DNA from: Escherichia phage VEc20
Direction: 5' to 3' (one strand)
Sequence record: MN022785.1
DNA length: 64,000 nucleotides
How positions within the stretch are numbered: the stretch's first letter is position 1; the number at the start of each line of letters is the position of its first letter. This document shows, piece after piece, positions 3,100 through 37,998 of the stretch. A program made the translations under genes and the position numbers. The notes below the pieces were generated by a model. That model made no database searches. It saw only the letters and a program-made list of their open reading frames with translations, and had not been told where the DNA came from.

Positions 3100-3561
3100 T
3101 TATTTGATTTGTTTAGCAGACCAAATGCGGTCTTTGATGATTTTTTGGAGGTCTTCAACATACTCTAGGTCATGAGCATGTGGATTATCTTTGAAACTAT
3201 GAGCTCGCGCAAGTTTCTGGCCTTCGGTCTTAATTATCAAAAGTTCTTTAAGAATTGCTTCATACCTAGAGATAATTCCTTTAGCAATATTTTTTTCTTG
3301 TGCTGCTTTAGGGTCAGCCTTAGGAGCAGGTTTACCAGAAGGTTTTTCGAAAGCCGCGCCAGTAGCAACCAGGCTTTTCCAGGCGGTGGTAACATAGTTA
3401 CCCACAAAGCCTTCAGCTCTCATATCGTCGTAGAACTTGTACCGAGATTCGTCAGAAGCATCTTTATAAGAATATTTACCAGCTTTAATAGCAGCAGTTG
3501 CTACAGCGCGAACATCTGAAGCGGATGCTTCGGTCATTAAAAATTGAGCATAAGTTTTCAT
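3100..3561 (-). CDS. internal-protein-like late protein with capsid-targeting-type N-terminus (MKTYAQFLMTE)
   Basis: 153 aa; AGGAAA RBS; own late promoter TATAAATA upstream and rho-independent terminator downstream; N-terminus resembles T4 IP leader MKTYQEFIAE. Confidence 0.65.
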   Translation of the reverse strand: MKTYAQFLMTEASASDVRAVATAAIKAGKYSYKDASDESRYKFYDDMRAEGFVGNYVTTAWKSLVATGAAFEKPSGKPAPKADPKAAQEKNIAKGIISRYEAILKELLIIKTEGQKLARAHSFKDNPHAHDLEYVEDLQKIIKDRIWSAKQIK

Positions 3562-3589
3562 TGTTATTTCCTGTGTTAATTAACTCATC

Positions 3590-3597
3590 TATTTATA
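3590..3597 (-). promoter_or_regulatory. T4 late promoter TATAAATA (gene 3100..3561)
   Basis: plus-strand tatttata; AGGAAA RBS and ATG 29 nt downstream on minus. Confidence 0.6.
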
Positions 3598-4303: not shown

Positions 4304-4379
4304 TGGTCGAGGCAGTAGGGATCGAACCTACGACCTAGGACTTAGAAGGTCCTTGCTCTTCCTTCTGAGCTATGCCCCG
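4304..4379 (-). tRNA. tRNA-Arg (anticodon TCT)
   Basis: hand-folded cloverleaf: acceptor CGGGGCA/TGCCTCG, anticodon loop CTTCTAA, T-arm GTAGG-TTCGATC-CCTAC, CCA encoded. Confidence 0.85.
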
Positions 4380-4383
4380 TAAT

Positions 4384-4459
4384 TGGGGTGACCGATGGGA
4401 GTCGAACCCATGACTACGAGAATCACAATCTCGAGTTCTACCAACTGAACTACGGCCAC
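4384..4459 (-). tRNA. tRNA-His (anticodon GTG)
   Basis: acceptor GTGGCCG/CGGTCAC, anticodon stem CGAGA/TCTCG loop TTGTGAT, T-arm ATGGG-TTCGACT-CCCAT, CCA encoded; no encoded G-1. Confidence 0.7.
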
Positions 4460-4573
4460 ATTAATACCTACTCCAACAATCAAGATGTCTTCACACGAAA
4501 TTAAGAGAAGAGTGATCAGTTCAACCCCTATAATCGCGTCAAGTAGATATTAATGTGACAGTTGTCACAAATT

Positions 4574-4648
4574 TGGCGGACGTGATAGGATTCGAACCTA
4601 TAACCAATCGCTTAACAGGCGATCGCTCTGCCATTGAGCTACACATCC
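4574..4648 (-). tRNA. tRNA-Asn (anticodon GTT)
   Basis: acceptor GGATGTG/CACGTCC, anticodon stem ATCGC/GCGAT loop CTGTTAA, T-arm ATAGG-TTCGAAT-CCTAT, CCA encoded. Confidence 0.8.
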
Positions 4649-4652
4649 AAAT

Positions 4653-4739
4653 TGGTGGGGAGTGGTGGAGTCGAACCACCCGAGTCGCAATGACAATGAA
4701 TTTACAGTCCACACCGCTACATCTACGGGATAACTCCCC
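4653..4739 (-). tRNA. tRNA-Tyr (anticodon GTA), class II with long variable arm; D-arm fold uncertain
   Basis: acceptor GGGGAGT/ACTCCCC perfect, T-arm GGTGG-TTCGACT-CCACC, anticodon loop CTGTAAA with G-U-containing stem, 87 nt. Confidence 0.55.
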
Positions 4740-4748
4740 AAATTAATT

Positions 4749-4823
4749 TGGTGGCCCTGGGTGGAATTGAACCACCATCTGGCGATTATGAGTCGCTTGC
4801 TTGAACCTTCCAGCTACAGGGCC
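4749..4823 (-). tRNA. tRNA with anticodon CAT (Met-type; probably the T4-like lysidine-modified tRNA-Ile)
   Basis: acceptor GGCCCTG/CAGGGCC, anticodon loop CTCATAA, T-arm GGTGG-TTCAATT-CCACC, CCA encoded. Confidence 0.8.
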
Positions 4824-4824
4824 T

Positions 4825-4900
4825 TGGTGCTGATTGACGGAATCGAACCGCCGACCTTCTCATTACAAGTGAGTTGCTCTACCTACTGAGCTAAATCAGC
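4825..4900 (-). tRNA. tRNA-Thr (anticodon TGT)
   Basis: acceptor GCTGATT/AATCAGC, D-arm GCTC-AGTAGGTA-GAGC, anticodon loop CTTGTAA, T-arm GGCGG-TTCGATT-CCGTC. Confidence 0.85.
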
Positions 4901-4905
4901 AAAAC

Positions 4906-4995
4906 TGGCGGAGGCGATAGGATTTGAACCTATGAGTCGCCGGAGCGACTGCCGGTTTTCAAGACCGGTGCATTAAACCACTCTGCCACGCCTCC
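4906..4995 (-). tRNA. tRNA-Ser (anticodon TGA), class II
   Basis: acceptor GGAGGCG/CGCCTCC, anticodon stem CCGGT/ACCGG loop CTTGAAA, long variable arm, T-arm ATAGG-TTCAAAT-CCTAT. Confidence 0.85.
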
Positions 4996-4997
4996 AG

Positions 4998-5071
4998 TCT
5001 CCGTGGCAGGATTTGAACCTACGACATTCTGCTCCCAAAGCAGACGCTCTACCAAACTGAGCTACACGGAG
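4998..5071 (-). tRNA. tRNA-Pro (anticodon TGG); CCA not encoded
   Basis: acceptor CTCCGTG/CACGGAG, anticodon stem TCTGC/GCAGA loop TTTGGGA, T-arm GTAGG-TTCAAAT-CCTGC. Confidence 0.8.
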
Positions 5072-5081
5072 TAAATTAAAT

Positions 5082-5155
<74 letters not shown>

Positions 5156-5160
5156 AAATT

Positions 5161-5247
5161 TGGTGCGAGAAGTGGGACTCGAACCCACAAGGAAATCATT
5201 CCGCAGCATTTTAAGTGCTGTGCCTTTACCAATTTGACCATTCTCGC
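5161..5247 (-). tRNA. tRNA-Leu (anticodon TAA), class II
   Basis: acceptor GCGAGAA/TTCTCGC, anticodon stem CAGCA/TGCTG loop CTTAAAA, T-arm GTGGG-TTCGAGT-CCCAC, 87 nt. Confidence 0.85.
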
Positions 5248-5248
5248 G

Positions 5249-5321
5249 CTGGGAATAAAGGACTCGAACCTTTGCATCTAGCAGTCAAAGTGCTATGCCT
5301 TACCAACTTGGCTAATTCCCA
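5249..5321 (-). tRNA. tRNA-Gln (anticodon TTG); CCA not encoded
   Basis: acceptor TGGGAAT/ATTCCCA (U1-A72), anticodon stem TAGCA/TGCTA loop CTTTGAC, T-arm AAAGG-TTCGAGT-CCTTT. Confidence 0.8.
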
Positions 5322-5418: not shown

Positions 5419-5706
5419 TTACCATTTATGATAATACGTATTTACGATACATTCAAGACCCAAAGGATTCTTGAAAATATTATATTCAAGAGGACCTTTT
5501 TCCGTTTCAATAAAGAAATCAAAGTTAACTGTGTTAAATTTACGGTCTTCCTTCACTAATTTAACTTGAGAAGATGAACGGTCAATGTAAACCTTTTCAA
5601 CTTCAAAACAGGTTAAAATGCCATAATCATCAATCAAGGCTTTAGCTGCTTCTTGATCATATTTATATCCATTTTCAATGGATGATACTTTAGCATAAAG
5701 AATCAT
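5419..5706 (-). CDS. hypothetical protein (95 aa)
   Basis: ORF track; start overlaps stop of upstream ORF (coupled); no recognisable motif, no capsid-targeting leader. Confidence 0.55.
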   Translation of the reverse strand: MILYAKVSSIENGYKYDQEAAKALIDDYGILTCFEVEKVYIDRSSSQVKLVKEDRKFNTVNFDFFIETEKGPLEYNIFKNPLGLECIVNTYYHKW

Positions 5707-5708
5707 TA

Positions 5709-6107
5709 TCAGCCTTCATCAACAATAGTATGAGTATTGGCATTTACGATTTGCCACCAGTCAAAGCGATTAGAACCCATCGGTTTGTTTTCATTTTCTT
5801 TGATAATGTCACGGAGTTCATCTTCAGAGAATGCTTTAGCGATTAAATCGGTATACCCACCACGTGGATAATAATTATCACCTGCAAACAAAAGGAAATT
5901 TACCTTCCCGGAAGGAACATATGCTTCCTTAGGATACTTGTTTCCTGCGTGGTCAACCACTTCAATATAACGGTAAGGAATATCGGTTCTTTCAACCCAT
6001 TGCCATGCCGCCGCAGGGGAATCGAAAGCATCTACACCTAAACGATTATCTTCATCTTTAGACGGATTATTTTCGTAATCCGCATATACATAATATTCAA
6101 CGTTCAT
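5709..6107 (-). CDS. hypothetical protein (132 aa)
   Basis: ORF track; start overlaps stop of the 61-aa ORF. Confidence 0.55.
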   Translation of the reverse strand: MNVEYYVYADYENNPSKDEDNRLGVDAFDSPAAAWQWVERTDIPYRYIEVVDHAGNKYPKEAYVPSGKVNFLLFAGDNYYPRGGYTDLIAKAFSEDELRDIIKENENKPMGSNRFDWWQIVNANTHTIVDEG

Positions 6108-6292
6108 TATTCACCTTTAGAAATTTTATCCATAACGATAGCAATTAAACCAATTAAAAATGCTACTACAAGTGAAAAAACATTTTCTGCCGTAGTCAAT
6201 AATCCGCATATAAATCCAACAAACATTGAAAAACTGAAAGCGGAAGCAGAAATTGCAATAGCAACATTTCGAATTAATTCACAACGTTTCAT
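6107..6292 (-). CDS. small hydrophobic (membrane) protein, 61 aa
   Basis: ORF track 6107..6433 trimmed to MKRCELIRN with GAGGAG RBS, downstream of promoter copy at 6321-6349. Confidence 0.55.
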   Translation of the reverse strand: MKRCELIRNVAIAISASAFSFSMFVGFICGLLTTAENVFSLVVAFLIGLIAIVMDKISKGE

Positions 6293-6320
6293 TTTATTCT
6301 CCTCAGTAGTTGATAGGGTA

Positions 6321-6349
6321 ATAGTATCACTACCCCATCTAAAAGTAAA
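6321..6349 (-). promoter_or_regulatory. sigma70-like early promoter candidate (-35 TTTACT, 17-nt spacer, -10 TACTAT), module copy 1
   Basis: plus-strand agtaaa ... atagta with imperfect inverted repeat GATAGGGTA/TACCCCATC flanking the -10. Confidence 0.5.
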
Positions 6350-6350
6350 C

Positions 6351-6584
6351 TTATTTTTTACGAAAAATTGATTTATTTTCTGCTGCCCATTTTTCAATAA
6401 CTGCAGCAGGACCAGTAACAACAATTTTATCACCGTAATCTTCTGCGGCGAGTTGACCGAAATTATCTAATGCATCACGAAGAACTCCATGAGGCATTTC
6501 ACCCATTTTATCTTTCTTGCCGGTGTAAATAAACTCAACTTTTACATCAGAAGATTCAGCGATAAACTCTTTGAAAGTTTTCAT
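6351..6584 (-). CDS. internal-protein-like small protein with capsid-targeting leader MKTFKEFIAE (77 aa)
   Basis: N-terminus matches T4 IP leader pattern with I-A-E cleavage-type site; ORF-track start 6596 is an alternative in-frame ATG. Confidence 0.6.
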   Translation of the reverse strand: MKTFKEFIAESSDVKVEFIYTGKKDKMGEMPHGVLRDALDNFGQLAAEDYGDKIVVTGPAAVIEKWAAENKSIFRKK

Positions 6585-6621
6585 TTTAGTTTCCATTCGA
6601 TTGTTTTGTTTTGATAGGGTA

Positions 6622-6650
6622 ATAGTATCACAACTAAAACCCTATGTAAA
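6622..6650 (-). promoter_or_regulatory. sigma70-like early promoter candidate (-35 TTTACA, 17-nt spacer, -10 TACTAT), module copy 2
   Basis: plus-strand tgtaaa ... atagta; inverted repeat ATAGGGT/ACCCTAT. Confidence 0.5.
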
Positions 6651-6663
6651 CAACTTTGTGAAA

Positions 6664-6921
6664 TTATTTTAAATCTTCTAATCGTTTCTTCATCTTAGAA
6701 CCATTTTTAGCAATTTCTCCTGCATCGGAGCATAATGCTAAAAGTGCTTTAACTTTCGTTTGGTCTCCTTTAAAAGATGAAGGATCTACTGCAGCAGCAA
6801 GTTCTTTAATACGAGAGAAAAGACGCTCAGCTTCAGCTAAAGCCATTCCAAGCTTTACTTCCATACCGTGGGAAGATTCAGTGATAGTAGTTTTTGCAGC
6901 AAACTCTTTGAAAGTTTTCAT
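6664..6921 (-). CDS. internal-protein-like small protein with leader MKTFKEFAAKTTITE (85 aa)
   Basis: AGGAAAATAAAA RBS; N-terminus paralogous to 6351..6584, mature part unrelated. Confidence 0.65.
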   Translation of the reverse strand: MKTFKEFAAKTTITESSHGMEVKLGMALAEAERLFSRIKELAAAVDPSSFKGDQTKVKALLALCSDAGEIAKNGSKMKKRLEDLK

Positions 6922-6952
6922 TTTTATTTTCCTAATTAATTTTGATGAGGTA

Positions 6953-6981
6953 ATAGTATCACTACCTCATCAGTATGTAAA
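6953..6981 (-). promoter_or_regulatory. sigma70-like early promoter candidate (-35 TTTACA, 17-nt spacer, -10 TACTAT), module copy 3
   Basis: plus-strand tgtaaa ... atagta; perfect 9-bp inverted repeat GATGAGGTA/TACCTCATC flanking the -10. Confidence 0.5.
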
Positions 6982-6994
6982 CAACTTTGTGAAA

Positions 6995-7679
<685 letters not shown>

Positions 7680-7680
<1 letters not shown>

Positions 7681-8405
7681 TATAGTACCTTTAGTGTATT
7701 TTTAATTTTAGAAAAAAGTTCTTCAAGAGAACCATCGTTTGTAATTACTAAATCGCCATCACGAATTGGCAATCCAGCTTCTGTAATATGTGTATCATTG
7801 GATTTTTGACCAGGACGAACTACATGAATTACTGTAGCACCCATCGCCCTAGCCGCATCCATTTCATGATCTTGACGGGTATCAGGAACGATATAATAAT
7901 CATAACCTGAGTTAAATTTATCAAGATAATCTAAAGCAAATAATTTTACCCAGTACATGCGGTCGAAGTTATTAACAATCAAATCCGTACCTAGGGCTTG
8001 CATCAGACGACGGACTGACCATTGATCTTCAATATTATTTATAACGTCAATAATCTTGTTAAATGCTACGGAATTAACTGATTCTTGTCCTTCGTCATCA
8101 AAAACAAACACACCTTTAATTGGGCTTTTACCATTAAGATAGCAAAATGCTTGTTCCATAATCGTGATTACTTCTAATTTAGTCAGATTTAAATTAGTCT
8201 CACGATCATAGTCAATTCCTTCAAACTCTTTACGAGTTAAGCAAGGATAATCGGTGTTTGCTGCAAATACTCCCCATGCATAAGCCAATGCATCCTTAAT
8301 AGGACCAGCAAGTTGGTATTTAACTGCAGAATAATTGCTCATGATAAAATCAGCAGTAGTATCTTTTCCACTACGCTTTACACCGCTTAAAAAGATTAGT
8401 TTCAT
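7680..8405 (-). CDS. 1: deoxynucleoside monophosphate kinase
   Basis: P-loop GVKRSGKDT; start MKLIFLSG with GAGGAG RBS gives 241 aa as T4 gp1 (ORF track start 8444 is an extension). Confidence 0.85.
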
Positions 8406-36095: not shown

Positions 36096-36520
36096 TGCTT
36101 CTGATCCCTGAAACTCATGAATTAGTTCTCGAGAATGTCGAAGCACTTATTCCTGAAGCACAGGGTCGCTTTGACGAATTGTCTTCTGCTTTAAATAAAG
36201 ACGATATAAATACAATTGTCGAGAATATGCTTGATGATGAAACTGATTTAGCGGTTGCATTAGCTTCTATTAATGAAAATATGCCGTTAAATGAATTTAT
36301 CGTTAAACATGTTTCCGCCCGTGGTGAAATTACTCGCACTAAAGACCGCAAAACGCGTGAACGTAATGCATTTCAAACCACTGGGCTGTCTAAAGCAAAA
36401 CGTAGACAAATTGCTCGTAAAGCTACCAAAACGAAGATTGCCAATCCAGCAGGTCAATCTCGTGCTCAGCGTAAGCGTAAAAAAGCTCTTAAACGCCGTA
36501 AAGCATTAGGATTAAGCTAA
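36095..36520 (+). CDS. 68: gp68 prohead core protein
   Basis: 141 aa as T4 gp68; basic C-terminus. Confidence 0.85.
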
Positions 36521-37158
36521 TGAATGAACCCCAATTACTAATTGAAACTTGGGGTCAACCTGGCGAAATTATTGATGGCGTACCAATGCTTGAATCTCAC
36601 GATGGAAAAGACTTAGGTTTAAAACCGGGTTTATACATCGAAGGAATATTCATGCAAGCGGAAGTCGTCAATAGAAATAAACGTCTTTATCCAAAACGTA
36701 TATTAGAAAAAGCGGTAAAAGACTATATTAATGAGCAAGTTTTAACTAAACAAGCTCTCGGAGAATTAAATCATCCTCCACGCGCTAATGTTGACCCGAT
36801 GCAAGCCGCTATCATTATAGAAGATATGTGGTGGAAAGGAAATGACGTATACGGACGAGCTCGTGTTATTGAAGGTGACCATGGTCCTGGAGATAAATTA
36901 GCAGCTAATATTCGTGCCGGATGGATTCCAGGAGTTTCTTCTCGTGGATTAGGTTCATTGACTGACACGAATAAAGGTTATCGTATCGTAAACGAAGGAT
37001 TCAAATTAACTGTAGGTGTTGATGCAGTATGGGGTCCAAGTGCTCCAGATGCATGGGTAACTCCTAAGGAAATTACCGAATCACAGACGGCGGAAGCCGA
37101 TACAAGTGCCGATGACGCCTATATGGCTCTCGCAGAGGCCATGAAAAAAGCGTTATAA
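36520..37158 (+). CDS. 21: prohead core protease
   Basis: 212 aa as T4 gp21. Confidence 0.9.
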   Translation: MNEPQLLIETWGQPGEIIDGVPMLESHDGKDLGLKPGLYIEGIFMQAEVVNRNKRLYPKRILEKAVKDYINEQVLTKQALGELNHPPRANVDPMQAAIIIEDMWWKGNDVYGRARVIEGDHGPGDKLAANIRAGWIPGVSSRGLGSLTDTNKGYRIVNEGFKLTVGVDAVWGPSAPDAWVTPKEITESQTAEADTSADDAYMALAEAMKKAL

Positions 37159-37161
37159 ATA
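37154..37161 (+). promoter_or_regulatory. T4 late promoter TATAAATA (gene 22)
   Basis: exact TATAAATA 28 nt upstream of gp22 ATG. Confidence 0.65.
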
Positions 37162-37188
37162 TTATTATCTAAACAACAGGACTACAAA

Positions 37189-37998
37189 ATGCTTAAAGAA
37201 CAACTGATTGCCGAAGCGCAGAAAATTGATGCTTCCGTTGCTCTTGATAGTATTTTCGAATCAGTTAATATTTCTCCGGAAGCAAAAGAAACTTTCGGCA
37301 CTGTATTCGAAGCTACCGTCAAGCAGCACGCCGTTAAATTAGCTGAATCTCATATCGCTAAAATTGCTGAAAAAGCAGAAGAAGAAGTAGAAAAAAATAA
37401 AGAAGAAGCAGAAGAAAAAGCTGAGAAGAAAATCGCTGAGCAAGCTTCTAAATTCCTTGACCATCTTGCAAAAGAATGGCTCACTGAAAATAAATTAGCA
37501 GTTGATAAAGGCATCAAAGCCGAACTGTTTGAATCCATGCTTGGTGGATTAAAAGAGCTCTTTGTTGAACACAACGTTGTTGTTCCAGAAGAATCAGTTG
37601 ATGTTGTAGCTGAAATGGAAGAAGAGCTGCAAGAACATAAAGAAGAATCAGCTCGTCTGTTCGAAGAACTCAATAAGCGTGACGCATATATCAATTATGT
37701 GCAGCGTGAAGTGGCATTGAGCGAAAGTACTAAAGATCTGACTGAGTCTCAAAAAGAAAAAGTCTCTGCTCTGGTCGAAGGTATGGATTATTCAGATGCA
37801 TTCTCAAGTAAATTGAGTGCAATCGTAGAAATGGTGAAGAAATCTAATAAAGATGAAAGCACTATTACTGAGAGTATAAATACTCCTGATACTGAAGCAG
37901 CCGGACTGAATTTCGTCACTGAAGCTGTAGAAGATAAAGCTGCACCTGGTGCAGAAGATATTGTAAGTGTATATGCGAAAGTCGCATCTCGTTTCTAA
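37189..37998 (+). CDS. 22: prohead core scaffold protein
   Basis: 269 aa as T4 gp22; helical/acidic. Confidence 0.9.
   Translation: MLKEQLIAEAQKIDASVALDSIFESVNISPEAKETFGTVFEATVKQHAVKLAESHIAKIAEKAEEEVEKNKEEAEEKAEKKIAEQASKFLDHLAKEWLTENKLAVDKGIKAELFESMLGGLKELFVEHNVVVPEESVDVVAEMEEELQEHKEESARLFEELNKRDAYINYVQREVALSESTKDLTESQKEKVSALVEGMDYSDAFSSKLSAIVEMVKKSNKDESTITESINTPDTEAAGLNFVTEAVEDKAAPGAEDIVSVYAKVASRF

Follow-up and report, generated by a model that had tools for sequence, protein, structure and literature searches.

The ipI locus of Escherichia phage VEc20 (record MN022785.1), as seen in the 64,000-nucleotide stretch analysed here (the window), is occupied by an Ip5 + Ip6 allele. Two small genes with unrelated products lie there on the minus strand, each behind its own copy of a promoter module and each opening with a capsid-targeting sequence (CTS). 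Both very probably encode internal proteins (IPs), alleles of an IP locus, that are carried on cassettes, packaged, cut by gp21 and injected, and that block a specific host defence. Publications and annotation already cover this locus with its leader and cassette structure, as well as the Ip5 and Ip6 families. Later papers credit Repoila et al. (1994) with describing polymorphic IP loci that have a common signal sequence, IP alleles reportedly being first catalogued there, and more than 30 IP variants have been reported.

The window genome is a Tequatrovirus (T4-like). Region 5700-7460 is matched by 789 phage records, about 200 of which hold at least 80% of it, and the 30 best matching records are 98.3-98.9% identical to it. 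The minus-strand order is gene 1 (dNMP kinase), 57A, 57B, an 85-aa ORF (Ip5), a 77-aa ORF (Ip6) and a 61-aa membrane ORF, after which come two more small ORFs and eleven tRNA genes (Table 1). Ip5 and Ip6 thus occupy the slot between 57B and trna.4, one of two polymorphic IP loci of T-even phages. T4 has the same gene order but a single gene, ipI, in this slot, as an earlier reading of the DNA from its letters alone (the sequence-only reading) had said. That reading had also placed two minus-strand ORFs here, each with MKTFKEF and an I-x-E site, and both are present (Table 1). The slot adjoins the anti-CBASS gene 57B/Acb1.

Table 1. Features of the Ip5-Ip6 slot, and the gp21 and gp22 genes, in window coordinates
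Feature	Position	Strand	Elements or supporting match
Gene 57B (Acb1 anti-CBASS nuclease family), upstream border of slot	6995..7453	-	Pfam Acb1 2.7e-60; same position in T4
Module A	6922..7010	-	-35 TTTACA 6976-6981; TG-extended -10 TACTAT 6953-6958; hairpin 6943-6972; AGGAAA ribosome site
Ip5 gene, 85 aa	6664..6921	-	phrog_3499 'internal head protein', full-length match, E 3.9e-49
Ip5 leader, codons 1-15	6877-6921	-	MKTFKEFAAKTTITE; I-T-E = residues 13-15
Mature Ip5, 70 aa (predicted)	6667-6876	-	
Module B	6585..6679	-	-35 6645-6650; -10 6622-6627; hairpin 6614-6645 (outer stem 6606-6653); TGGAAA ribosome site
Ip6 gene, 77 aa	6351..6584	-	phrog_8111 'internal virion protein', full-length match, E 3.3e-51
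Ip6 leader, codons 1-10	6555-6584	-	MKTFKEFIAE; I-A-E = residues 8-10
Mature Ip6, 67 aa (predicted)	6354-6554	-	
Module C	6293..6350	-	-35 TTTACT 6344-6349; -10 6321-6326; hairpin 6312-6339; GAGGAG ribosome site
trna.4 homologue, 61-aa predicted membrane protein, downstream border of slot	6107..6292	-	phrog_1692 6e-35; ASO78A note; T4 annotation
gp21 prohead protease	36520..37158	+	Pfam Peptidase_S77 1.5e-111
gp22 scaffold gene, after gp21	37189-37998		Pfam T4_CASP 2.5e-90

Membership of both genes in the internal-protein family, proposed from the letters, agrees with their PHROG matches and with the Ip5 and Ip6 names in public records. Ip5 is named in UniRef from RB70 and T2, its PST homologue is ipV, and the ASO78A record cites RB14 Ip5. 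With 90% identity as the lower limit, 268 phage records contain the mature part, and in many deposited phages it is 100% identical. Mature Ip6 is found in 230 phage records (tblastn); it is named ipVI in Yersinia phage PST, whose mature Ip6 is 100% identical to that of the window, and ip6 in VR7, VR26 and fFiEco06. The PST layout, 57B-ipV-ipVI-tRNA.4, is the same as here, and the Ip5 and Ip6 of PST, RB70, T2, VR7 and fFiEco06 are the two genes of the window with essentially no difference. An in-frame ATG four codons upstream of Ip6 (6596) is probably not the start.

The two mature parts had been called dissimilar, and BLASTP indeed returns no alignment between them at E<=100. That different genes fill the same slot is borne out by a comparison of 37 loci, 36 of them around 57B homologues from IMG/VR and the last from the window. 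Leader-bearing ORFs, 47 in all, lie downstream of 57B in 30 of these 37, and their mature parts fall into 15 families. The payload genes are present or absent among near-identical phages.

Scanned against Pfam and NCBIfam, Ip5, Ip6 and trna.4 give nothing above threshold, PDB sequence searches with Ip5 and Ip6 return chance matches only (E>0.6), and structure searches with both payloads return generic matches only. Judged by AlphaFold2 models, the payloads are real folded proteins: mature Ip6 is modelled as a beta-alpha-beta-beta-alpha-beta ferredoxin-like fold (pLDDT 89) and mature Ip5 as a two-helix hairpin (pLDDT 80), folds that are generic in both cases. Foldseek of Ip6 against BFVD finds, besides Ip6 itself, a single 78-aa protein of 32% identity, and Foldseek of Ip5 against the PDB finds nothing at E<=0.001. 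An exhaustive phmmer search with mature Ip6 against 1.84 billion representatives yields three matches, two of them IPs. P0018, a 491-aa NHL-repeat protein, was rejected as an Ip6 relative because its score is inflated by five identical repeats and the match is put down to chance. Tsi2 and Aqs1 were likewise rejected as structural relatives of Ip5, being non-specific helical-hairpin lookalikes at E 4-8. Structure prediction on the mature peptides had been suggested as a check, and the outcome across Pfam, NCBIfam, PDB and Foldseek is that the payloads are restricted to phages. A match to ordinary housekeeping or structural proteins, which the sequence-only reading had named as a refutation, did not turn up in these searches.

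The case for an anti-defence function is made by analogy with T4. IPI* is the inhibitor of GmrS/GmrD of E. coli CT596. Ip2 blocks one GmrSD and Ip3 another (Silas et al. 2025, PMC12373910), so that each of T4 Ip1, Ip2 and Ip3 has its own GmrSD type IV restriction enzyme to inhibit (PMC12373910). From this likeness we infer an anti-defence activity for Ip5 and Ip6. Once injected, each would bind and block one specific first-line host defence protein, as Ip1, Ip2 and Ip3 do, and the most likely target would be a variant of GmrSD, the type IV restriction system that attacks glucosyl-hmC DNA. Silas et al. propose that all genes of both IP loci target GmrSD variants (PMC12373910), and the anti-restriction role suggested by the sequence-only reading agrees with this. 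In the same study ip4-10 gave no reproducible inhibition of 15 GmrSD group representatives, and the ip5 and ip6 screened may differ from the window sequences (PMC12373910). No sequence likeness to IPI* was found when Ip6 was compared with it, Ip5 has no PDB sequence match, and searches of solved structures never returned IPI*. More generally, neither Ip5 nor Ip6 shows a sequence or fold relation to a proven GmrSD inhibitor; Ip1-3 are unrelated to each other as well.

It is possible, if somewhat doubtful, that Ip5, Ip6 or both inhibit a first-response defence other than GmrSD. Such a target would fit the failure against the 15 GmrSD groups together with the position of the slot beside 57B/Acb1. 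If it were the case, the IP cassettes of T-even phages would be a general delivery route for anti-defence proteins, reaching beyond an arms race with GmrSD only.

A more conservative proposal is that packaged Ip5 and Ip6 act in the head itself, through charge neutralisation, DNA packing or ejection, or core assembly, and have no anti-defence target. T4 IPs are abundant, at about 360 copies each, and IPIII mutants have head-assembly defects (PMC9026906); IP lysines contact DNA phosphates (PMC3012670), and mature Ip5, with a calculated pI of 9.2, is basic. The published screen, which gave ip4-10 no GmrSD target, also counts in favour of a head role. Yet mature Ip6, unlike the basic T4 IPs, is neutral (calculated pI 6.5), and defence targets are now known for all three T4 IPs. 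A role in the head also leaves unexplained why one slot should hold 15 unrelated payload families and why these should come and go among near-identical phages. On balance, a role confined to the head is improbable.

The preferred reading, that Ip5 and Ip6 are injected anti-defence proteins, draws on the leader. The motif M[KR]T[FY][KQ][ED]F occurs at the start of two ORFs only, Ip5 and Ip6, in a six-frame scan of the 64 kb. Ip5 begins with MKTFKEFAAKTTITE/SS (the slash marks the cleavage site), so that MKTFKEF is followed by AAKTTITE/SS; in Ip6 the shorter leader likewise runs into SS. Both leaders have aromatic residues at positions 4 and 7 and an L/I-x-E at the propeptide end. The match to the leaders of T4 internal proteins claimed by the sequence-only reading holds for the CTS type, but the MKTYQEFIAE it quoted is the leader of IPII and IPIII, and T4 IPI starts MKTFKEFTSTTTPVSTITE. 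The T4 IPI leader shares its first seven residues, MKTFKEF, with the window genes and its I-T-E cleavage site with Ip5; it is 19 residues long, against 15 in Ip5 and 10 in Ip6.

IP propeptides of 10-19 residues target the T4 prohead core (PMC9026906). Residues 4 and 7 of the CTS serve targeting and residues 8 and 10 processing, gp21 cleaves after L/I-x-E, and the T4 IPs, at the copy number given above, enter and leave the head together with the DNA (PMC9026906). The leaders of Ip5 and Ip6 have the sequence features that these rules call for, and the window has the gp21 and gp22 genes at 36520-37998. We infer packaging, processing and injection of both proteins from this leader homology and from T4 biochemistry. 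The leader would dock each protein to the prohead's scaffolding core, and gp21 would cut after I-A-E in Ip6 or I-T-E in Ip5, releasing an Ip6 of about 7.4 kDa (SSDV...) and an Ip5 of about 7.5 kDa (SSHG...), close to the roughly 8 kDa of mature T4 IPI. The mature proteins would then be packed with the DNA, by analogy several hundred to a head, and be delivered into the cell along with it. A literature search found no proteomic report on Ip5 or Ip6.

The leader also bears on the proposal that Ip5 and Ip6 are ordinary early cytoplasmic proteins that are never packaged, their shared N-terminus being kept only as part of a DNA recombination module. Promoters at the locus are of the early type only, with no late promoter (TATAAATA) between 57A and trna.4, and the leader DNA does belong to a repeat (repeat family D3): the pair 6549-6592 / 6886-6929, covering ribosome site and leader codons, is 80% identical. 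The promoter set means that supply during head assembly would need a persistent early-made protein or upstream read-through; a TATAAATA lies at 8036-8043, and late transcripts reading through from it might cover the ip genes. Across the loci, however, the leader takes the forms MKTFKEF and MKTYQEF or MKSYKEF, and the peptide is kept where the DNA differs; the leader is therefore selected as a peptide. An [LIMV]-x-E/[AST] site lies within 25 residues in all 47 leader-bearing ORFs. The trna.4 homologue, by contrast, has the same promoter module and no capsid-targeting leader, and at several loci leader-bearing genes stand directly after 57B, with stop and start overlapping and no module between. 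The same leader type is, moreover, sufficient for packaging in T4 by experiment (PMC9026906). Taken together, these points make unpackaged cytoplasmic products very improbable.

Each gene of the proposed packaged pair is preceded by a repeated module, which the sequence-only reading had called near-identical. The repeat is real and its core has three copies, but identity is 77-83% and the modules are identical blocks between which the spacer and the ribosome-site region vary. The repeat finder aligns 6584-6679 with 6915-7010 (96 nt, 77% identity) and finds a 41-nt core at 6310-6350, 6611-6651 and 6942-6982 (78-83% identity); the 14-nt core GTGATACTATTACC occurs exactly three times in the window, each time at this locus. 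As had been described, TTTACA, a 17-bp spacer and TACTAT precede both IP genes, at 6953-6981 and 6622-6650; a TG stands before the -10. The third copy, as was also noted, precedes the 61-aa hydrophobic ORF, which is T4 trna.4; its -35 reads TTTACT. The AGGAAA ribosome-binding site assigned to the genes stands before Ip5 only, Ip6 having TGGAAA and trna.4 GAGGAG. All three copies fit TTTACW-N17-TAYWAT, the PST/T4 early-promoter form and PeSL consensus (PMC4122927).

The module reaches into the upstream gene. The last codons and stop of 57B are part of it, and the 3' end of 57B aligns with the 3' end of Ip5. Because 57B and Ip5 share the ending DLK-stop followed by TTTCACAAAGTTG, the repeat starts inside the upstream gene; module C is without the TTTCACAAAGTTG upstream block. 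Two plus-strand ORFs, 6571-6672 and 6881-7003, were rejected as genes, as they are mirror images of the repeat.

A feature absent from the sequence-only reading is a hairpin around the -10 box in each module. Folding energies are -17.4 kcal/mol for A (z -4.6), -18.1 for B (z -5.0) and -16.1 for C (z -3.2), and none of 200 shuffles folds as well. Some of the pairs are G.U and can form in the sense RNA only, and the stems vary across phages by compensatory changes (GATGAGGTA/TACCTCATC, ATAGGGT/ACCCTAT, GGTAGGACTAT/ATAGTCCTACC and GATGGGATAA/TTATCCCATC). At least eight consecutive pairs are found in 20 of 60 modules across the loci, against about 2 expected. Read-through RNA alone can fold into the hairpin, since transcripts from a module's own promoter start within its 3' arm. 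No U-tract follows the stems, and a terminator scan calls none at the three module sites. In phage ASO78A the hairpins are annotated as intrinsic terminators.

That the ORFs or repeats are chance features of AT-rich intergenic DNA might be argued from the small size of the ORFs and from a generic sigma-70 scan (13 promoter-like sites against 12.4 in shuffled sequence), but the idea is refuted by the conservation of both ORFs in hundreds of genomes, and the confident predicted folds of both, a leader motif found only twice in six frames, a 14-nt core confined to three sites at this locus and the hairpin z-scores of -3.2 to -5.0 stand against it as well.

The sequence shows each gene to be a self-contained cassette, comprising early promoter and hairpin, ribosome site, leader and an unrelated payload. 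In line with the published model for promoter and stem-loop elements (PeSLs), recombination between the homologous modules and leaders would exchange, insert or remove cassettes. In T4 the module before trna.4 is a hybrid whose 5' half equals that of window module B and whose 3' half equals that of module C, which is what excision of an Ip6 cassette might leave. The leader and first mature residues of window Ip6 carry Ip5-type DNA: PST and the window share MKTFKEFIAE/SS, whereas other Ip6 alleles read MKTYQEFIAE/TA. In slur14 and many other phages, the second IP locus, between e and denV, holds a 54%-identical paralogue of Ip5. Hybrid modules, a converted Ip6 leader and an Ip5 paralogue at the second locus point, from sequence comparison, to recombination at the modules.

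Among the closest known systems is the T4 ipI locus, which occupies the same slot with an identical promoter, hairpin and ribosome-site module. From promoter to start, module A is identical to the module before T4 ipI, and the identity with the T4 module covers everything between the 57B end and the ATG. The two loci differ in that the T4 payload is unrelated and stands in one cassette, against two in the window. T4 Ip2 and Ip3, each a specific GmrSD inhibitor, share the CTS leader and the packaging logic; their payloads are unrelated to those described here and their locus, ipII/ipIII between e and denV, lies outside the window, though it is where other phages hold the Ip5 paralogue.

A second comparison is with the PeSLs themselves. 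The motif that Repoila and colleagues described in 1994 is reportedly of roughly 70 bp. According to later accounts, Repoila et al. had already seen PeSL-like elements at two IP loci (Arbiol 2010, PMC2839356; Comeau 2014, PMC4122927), and the same two papers treat promoter and stem-loop modules as recombination sites. The PeSLs of RB49/phi1, PST/T4 and nt-1/KVP40 resemble the window modules in having an AT-rich upstream part, a -35, a 17-nt spacer and a -10 (PMC2839356, PMC4122927). Further points of likeness are a stem-loop overlapping the -10, a Shine-Dalgarno sequence and a start codon, repetition around variable small genes, and hybrid modules that mark recombination. Arbiol and colleagues nevertheless class the T-even IP elements as analogues and not homologues of the RB49 PeSLs, with a T4 early-promoter consensus and weaker, AT-richer stems (Arbiol 2010, PMC2839356). 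The window repeat also differs from PeSLs in including a coding leader and in having no U-tract after the hairpin. Promoter and terminator or attenuator activity has been demonstrated for RB49 PeSLs only.

A known and fairly subtle system was thus recovered correctly from sequence alone. Ip5 and Ip6, which are presumably injected, are widespread: over 200 Tequatroviruses with sequenced genomes have them, including many isolates for phage therapy. Knowing their targets would help to predict the host range of T4-like therapeutic phages, and might bring to light new type IV restriction variants or a different immediate-early defence.

The promoter modules and leaders of this internal-protein (IP) slot carry apparent traces of recombination. 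In T4 (L002), the module preceding trna.4 (3516-3591) is a hybrid of the 5' half of window module B, the early-promoter and hairpin unit before Ip6, and the 3' half of module C, the corresponding unit before trna.4, as compared with window 6585-6663 and 6293-6350. The T4 module looks like a scar of the recombination that removed an Ip6 cassette. The capsid-targeting leader of window Ip6, MKTFKEFIAE|SS (bar, cleavage site; 6549-6600, minus strand), is built from DNA of the adjacent Ip5 leader, while other Ip6 alleles read MKTYQEFIAE|TA (L001, L035). The window leader thus looks like a product of gene conversion between tandem cassettes.

Another in-frame ATG lies four codons 5' of the Ip6 start (METK-MKTF...). 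Many automatic annotations start the gene there, and Ip6 is then listed at 81, 83 or 98 aa. With that start the targeting leader would no longer be N-terminal but buried; the second ATG in reading order (MKTF...) is favoured by its conserved distance from GGAAA.

Each module hairpin contains G.U pairs, which can form in the sense RNA only. The stems covary between phages. ASO78A annotates these hairpins as rho-independent terminators, despite the absence of a U-tract 3' of the hairpin in all three window modules. Plus-strand ORFs 6571-6672 and 6881-7003 were rejected as genes; both end in ...YVNNFVKLF, and each arises from reading the repeated module on its reverse strand.

Features in and around the IP slot of the window
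Feature	Position	Strand
Late-promoter box TATAAATA, within gene 1	8036-8043	-
57B	6995-7453	-
Hairpins around the -10 box, one per promoter module	6943-6972, 6614-6645, 6312-6339	-
Upstream in-frame ATG of Ip6 (METK)	6585-6596	-
trna.3 homologue, 3' of trna.4	5709-6107	-
trna.2 homologue, 3' of trna.4	5419-5706	-
tRNA cluster, eleven genes	4304-5321	-

A Pfam match (2.7e-60) places 57B in the anti-CBASS family Acb1, and a known anti-defence gene therefore lies immediately beside the IP slot. Downstream, the homologue of T4 trna.3 (132 aa) belongs to phrog_1411 and that of T4 trna.2 has 95 aa. The tRNA cluster, which exceeds the eight genes of T4, includes tRNAs His, Asn and Tyr and one with a CAT anticodon; the homing endonuclease segB is absent from it, and the tRNA-His to tRNA-Asn gap is 114 nt.

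The exact T4 late-promoter box in gene 1 is the closest upstream of the ip genes. Because none occurs between 57A and trna.4, late IP supply would depend on read-through or early-made protein.

In nine comparison loci (L017, L021, L024, L026-L030, L036), the 57B stop codon overlaps the ATG of the first IP gene (~3453-3456) with no promoter module between them; IP genes thus do not require the module. In phage slur14 (L040 2438-2719), the second IP locus, bounded by e (lysozyme) and denV, holds an Ip5 paralogue (54% identity), and Ip5 copies of this type (<60% identity) are present in 226 phage records. Other leader-bearing proteins (L028, L030 and L021 at 3456; L023 at 3773) are ~30% identical to Ip6 and have the motif GPxxxI(D/E)xW..KN at the C-terminus in common with it; some 'unrelated' IPs thus form a diverged superfamily.
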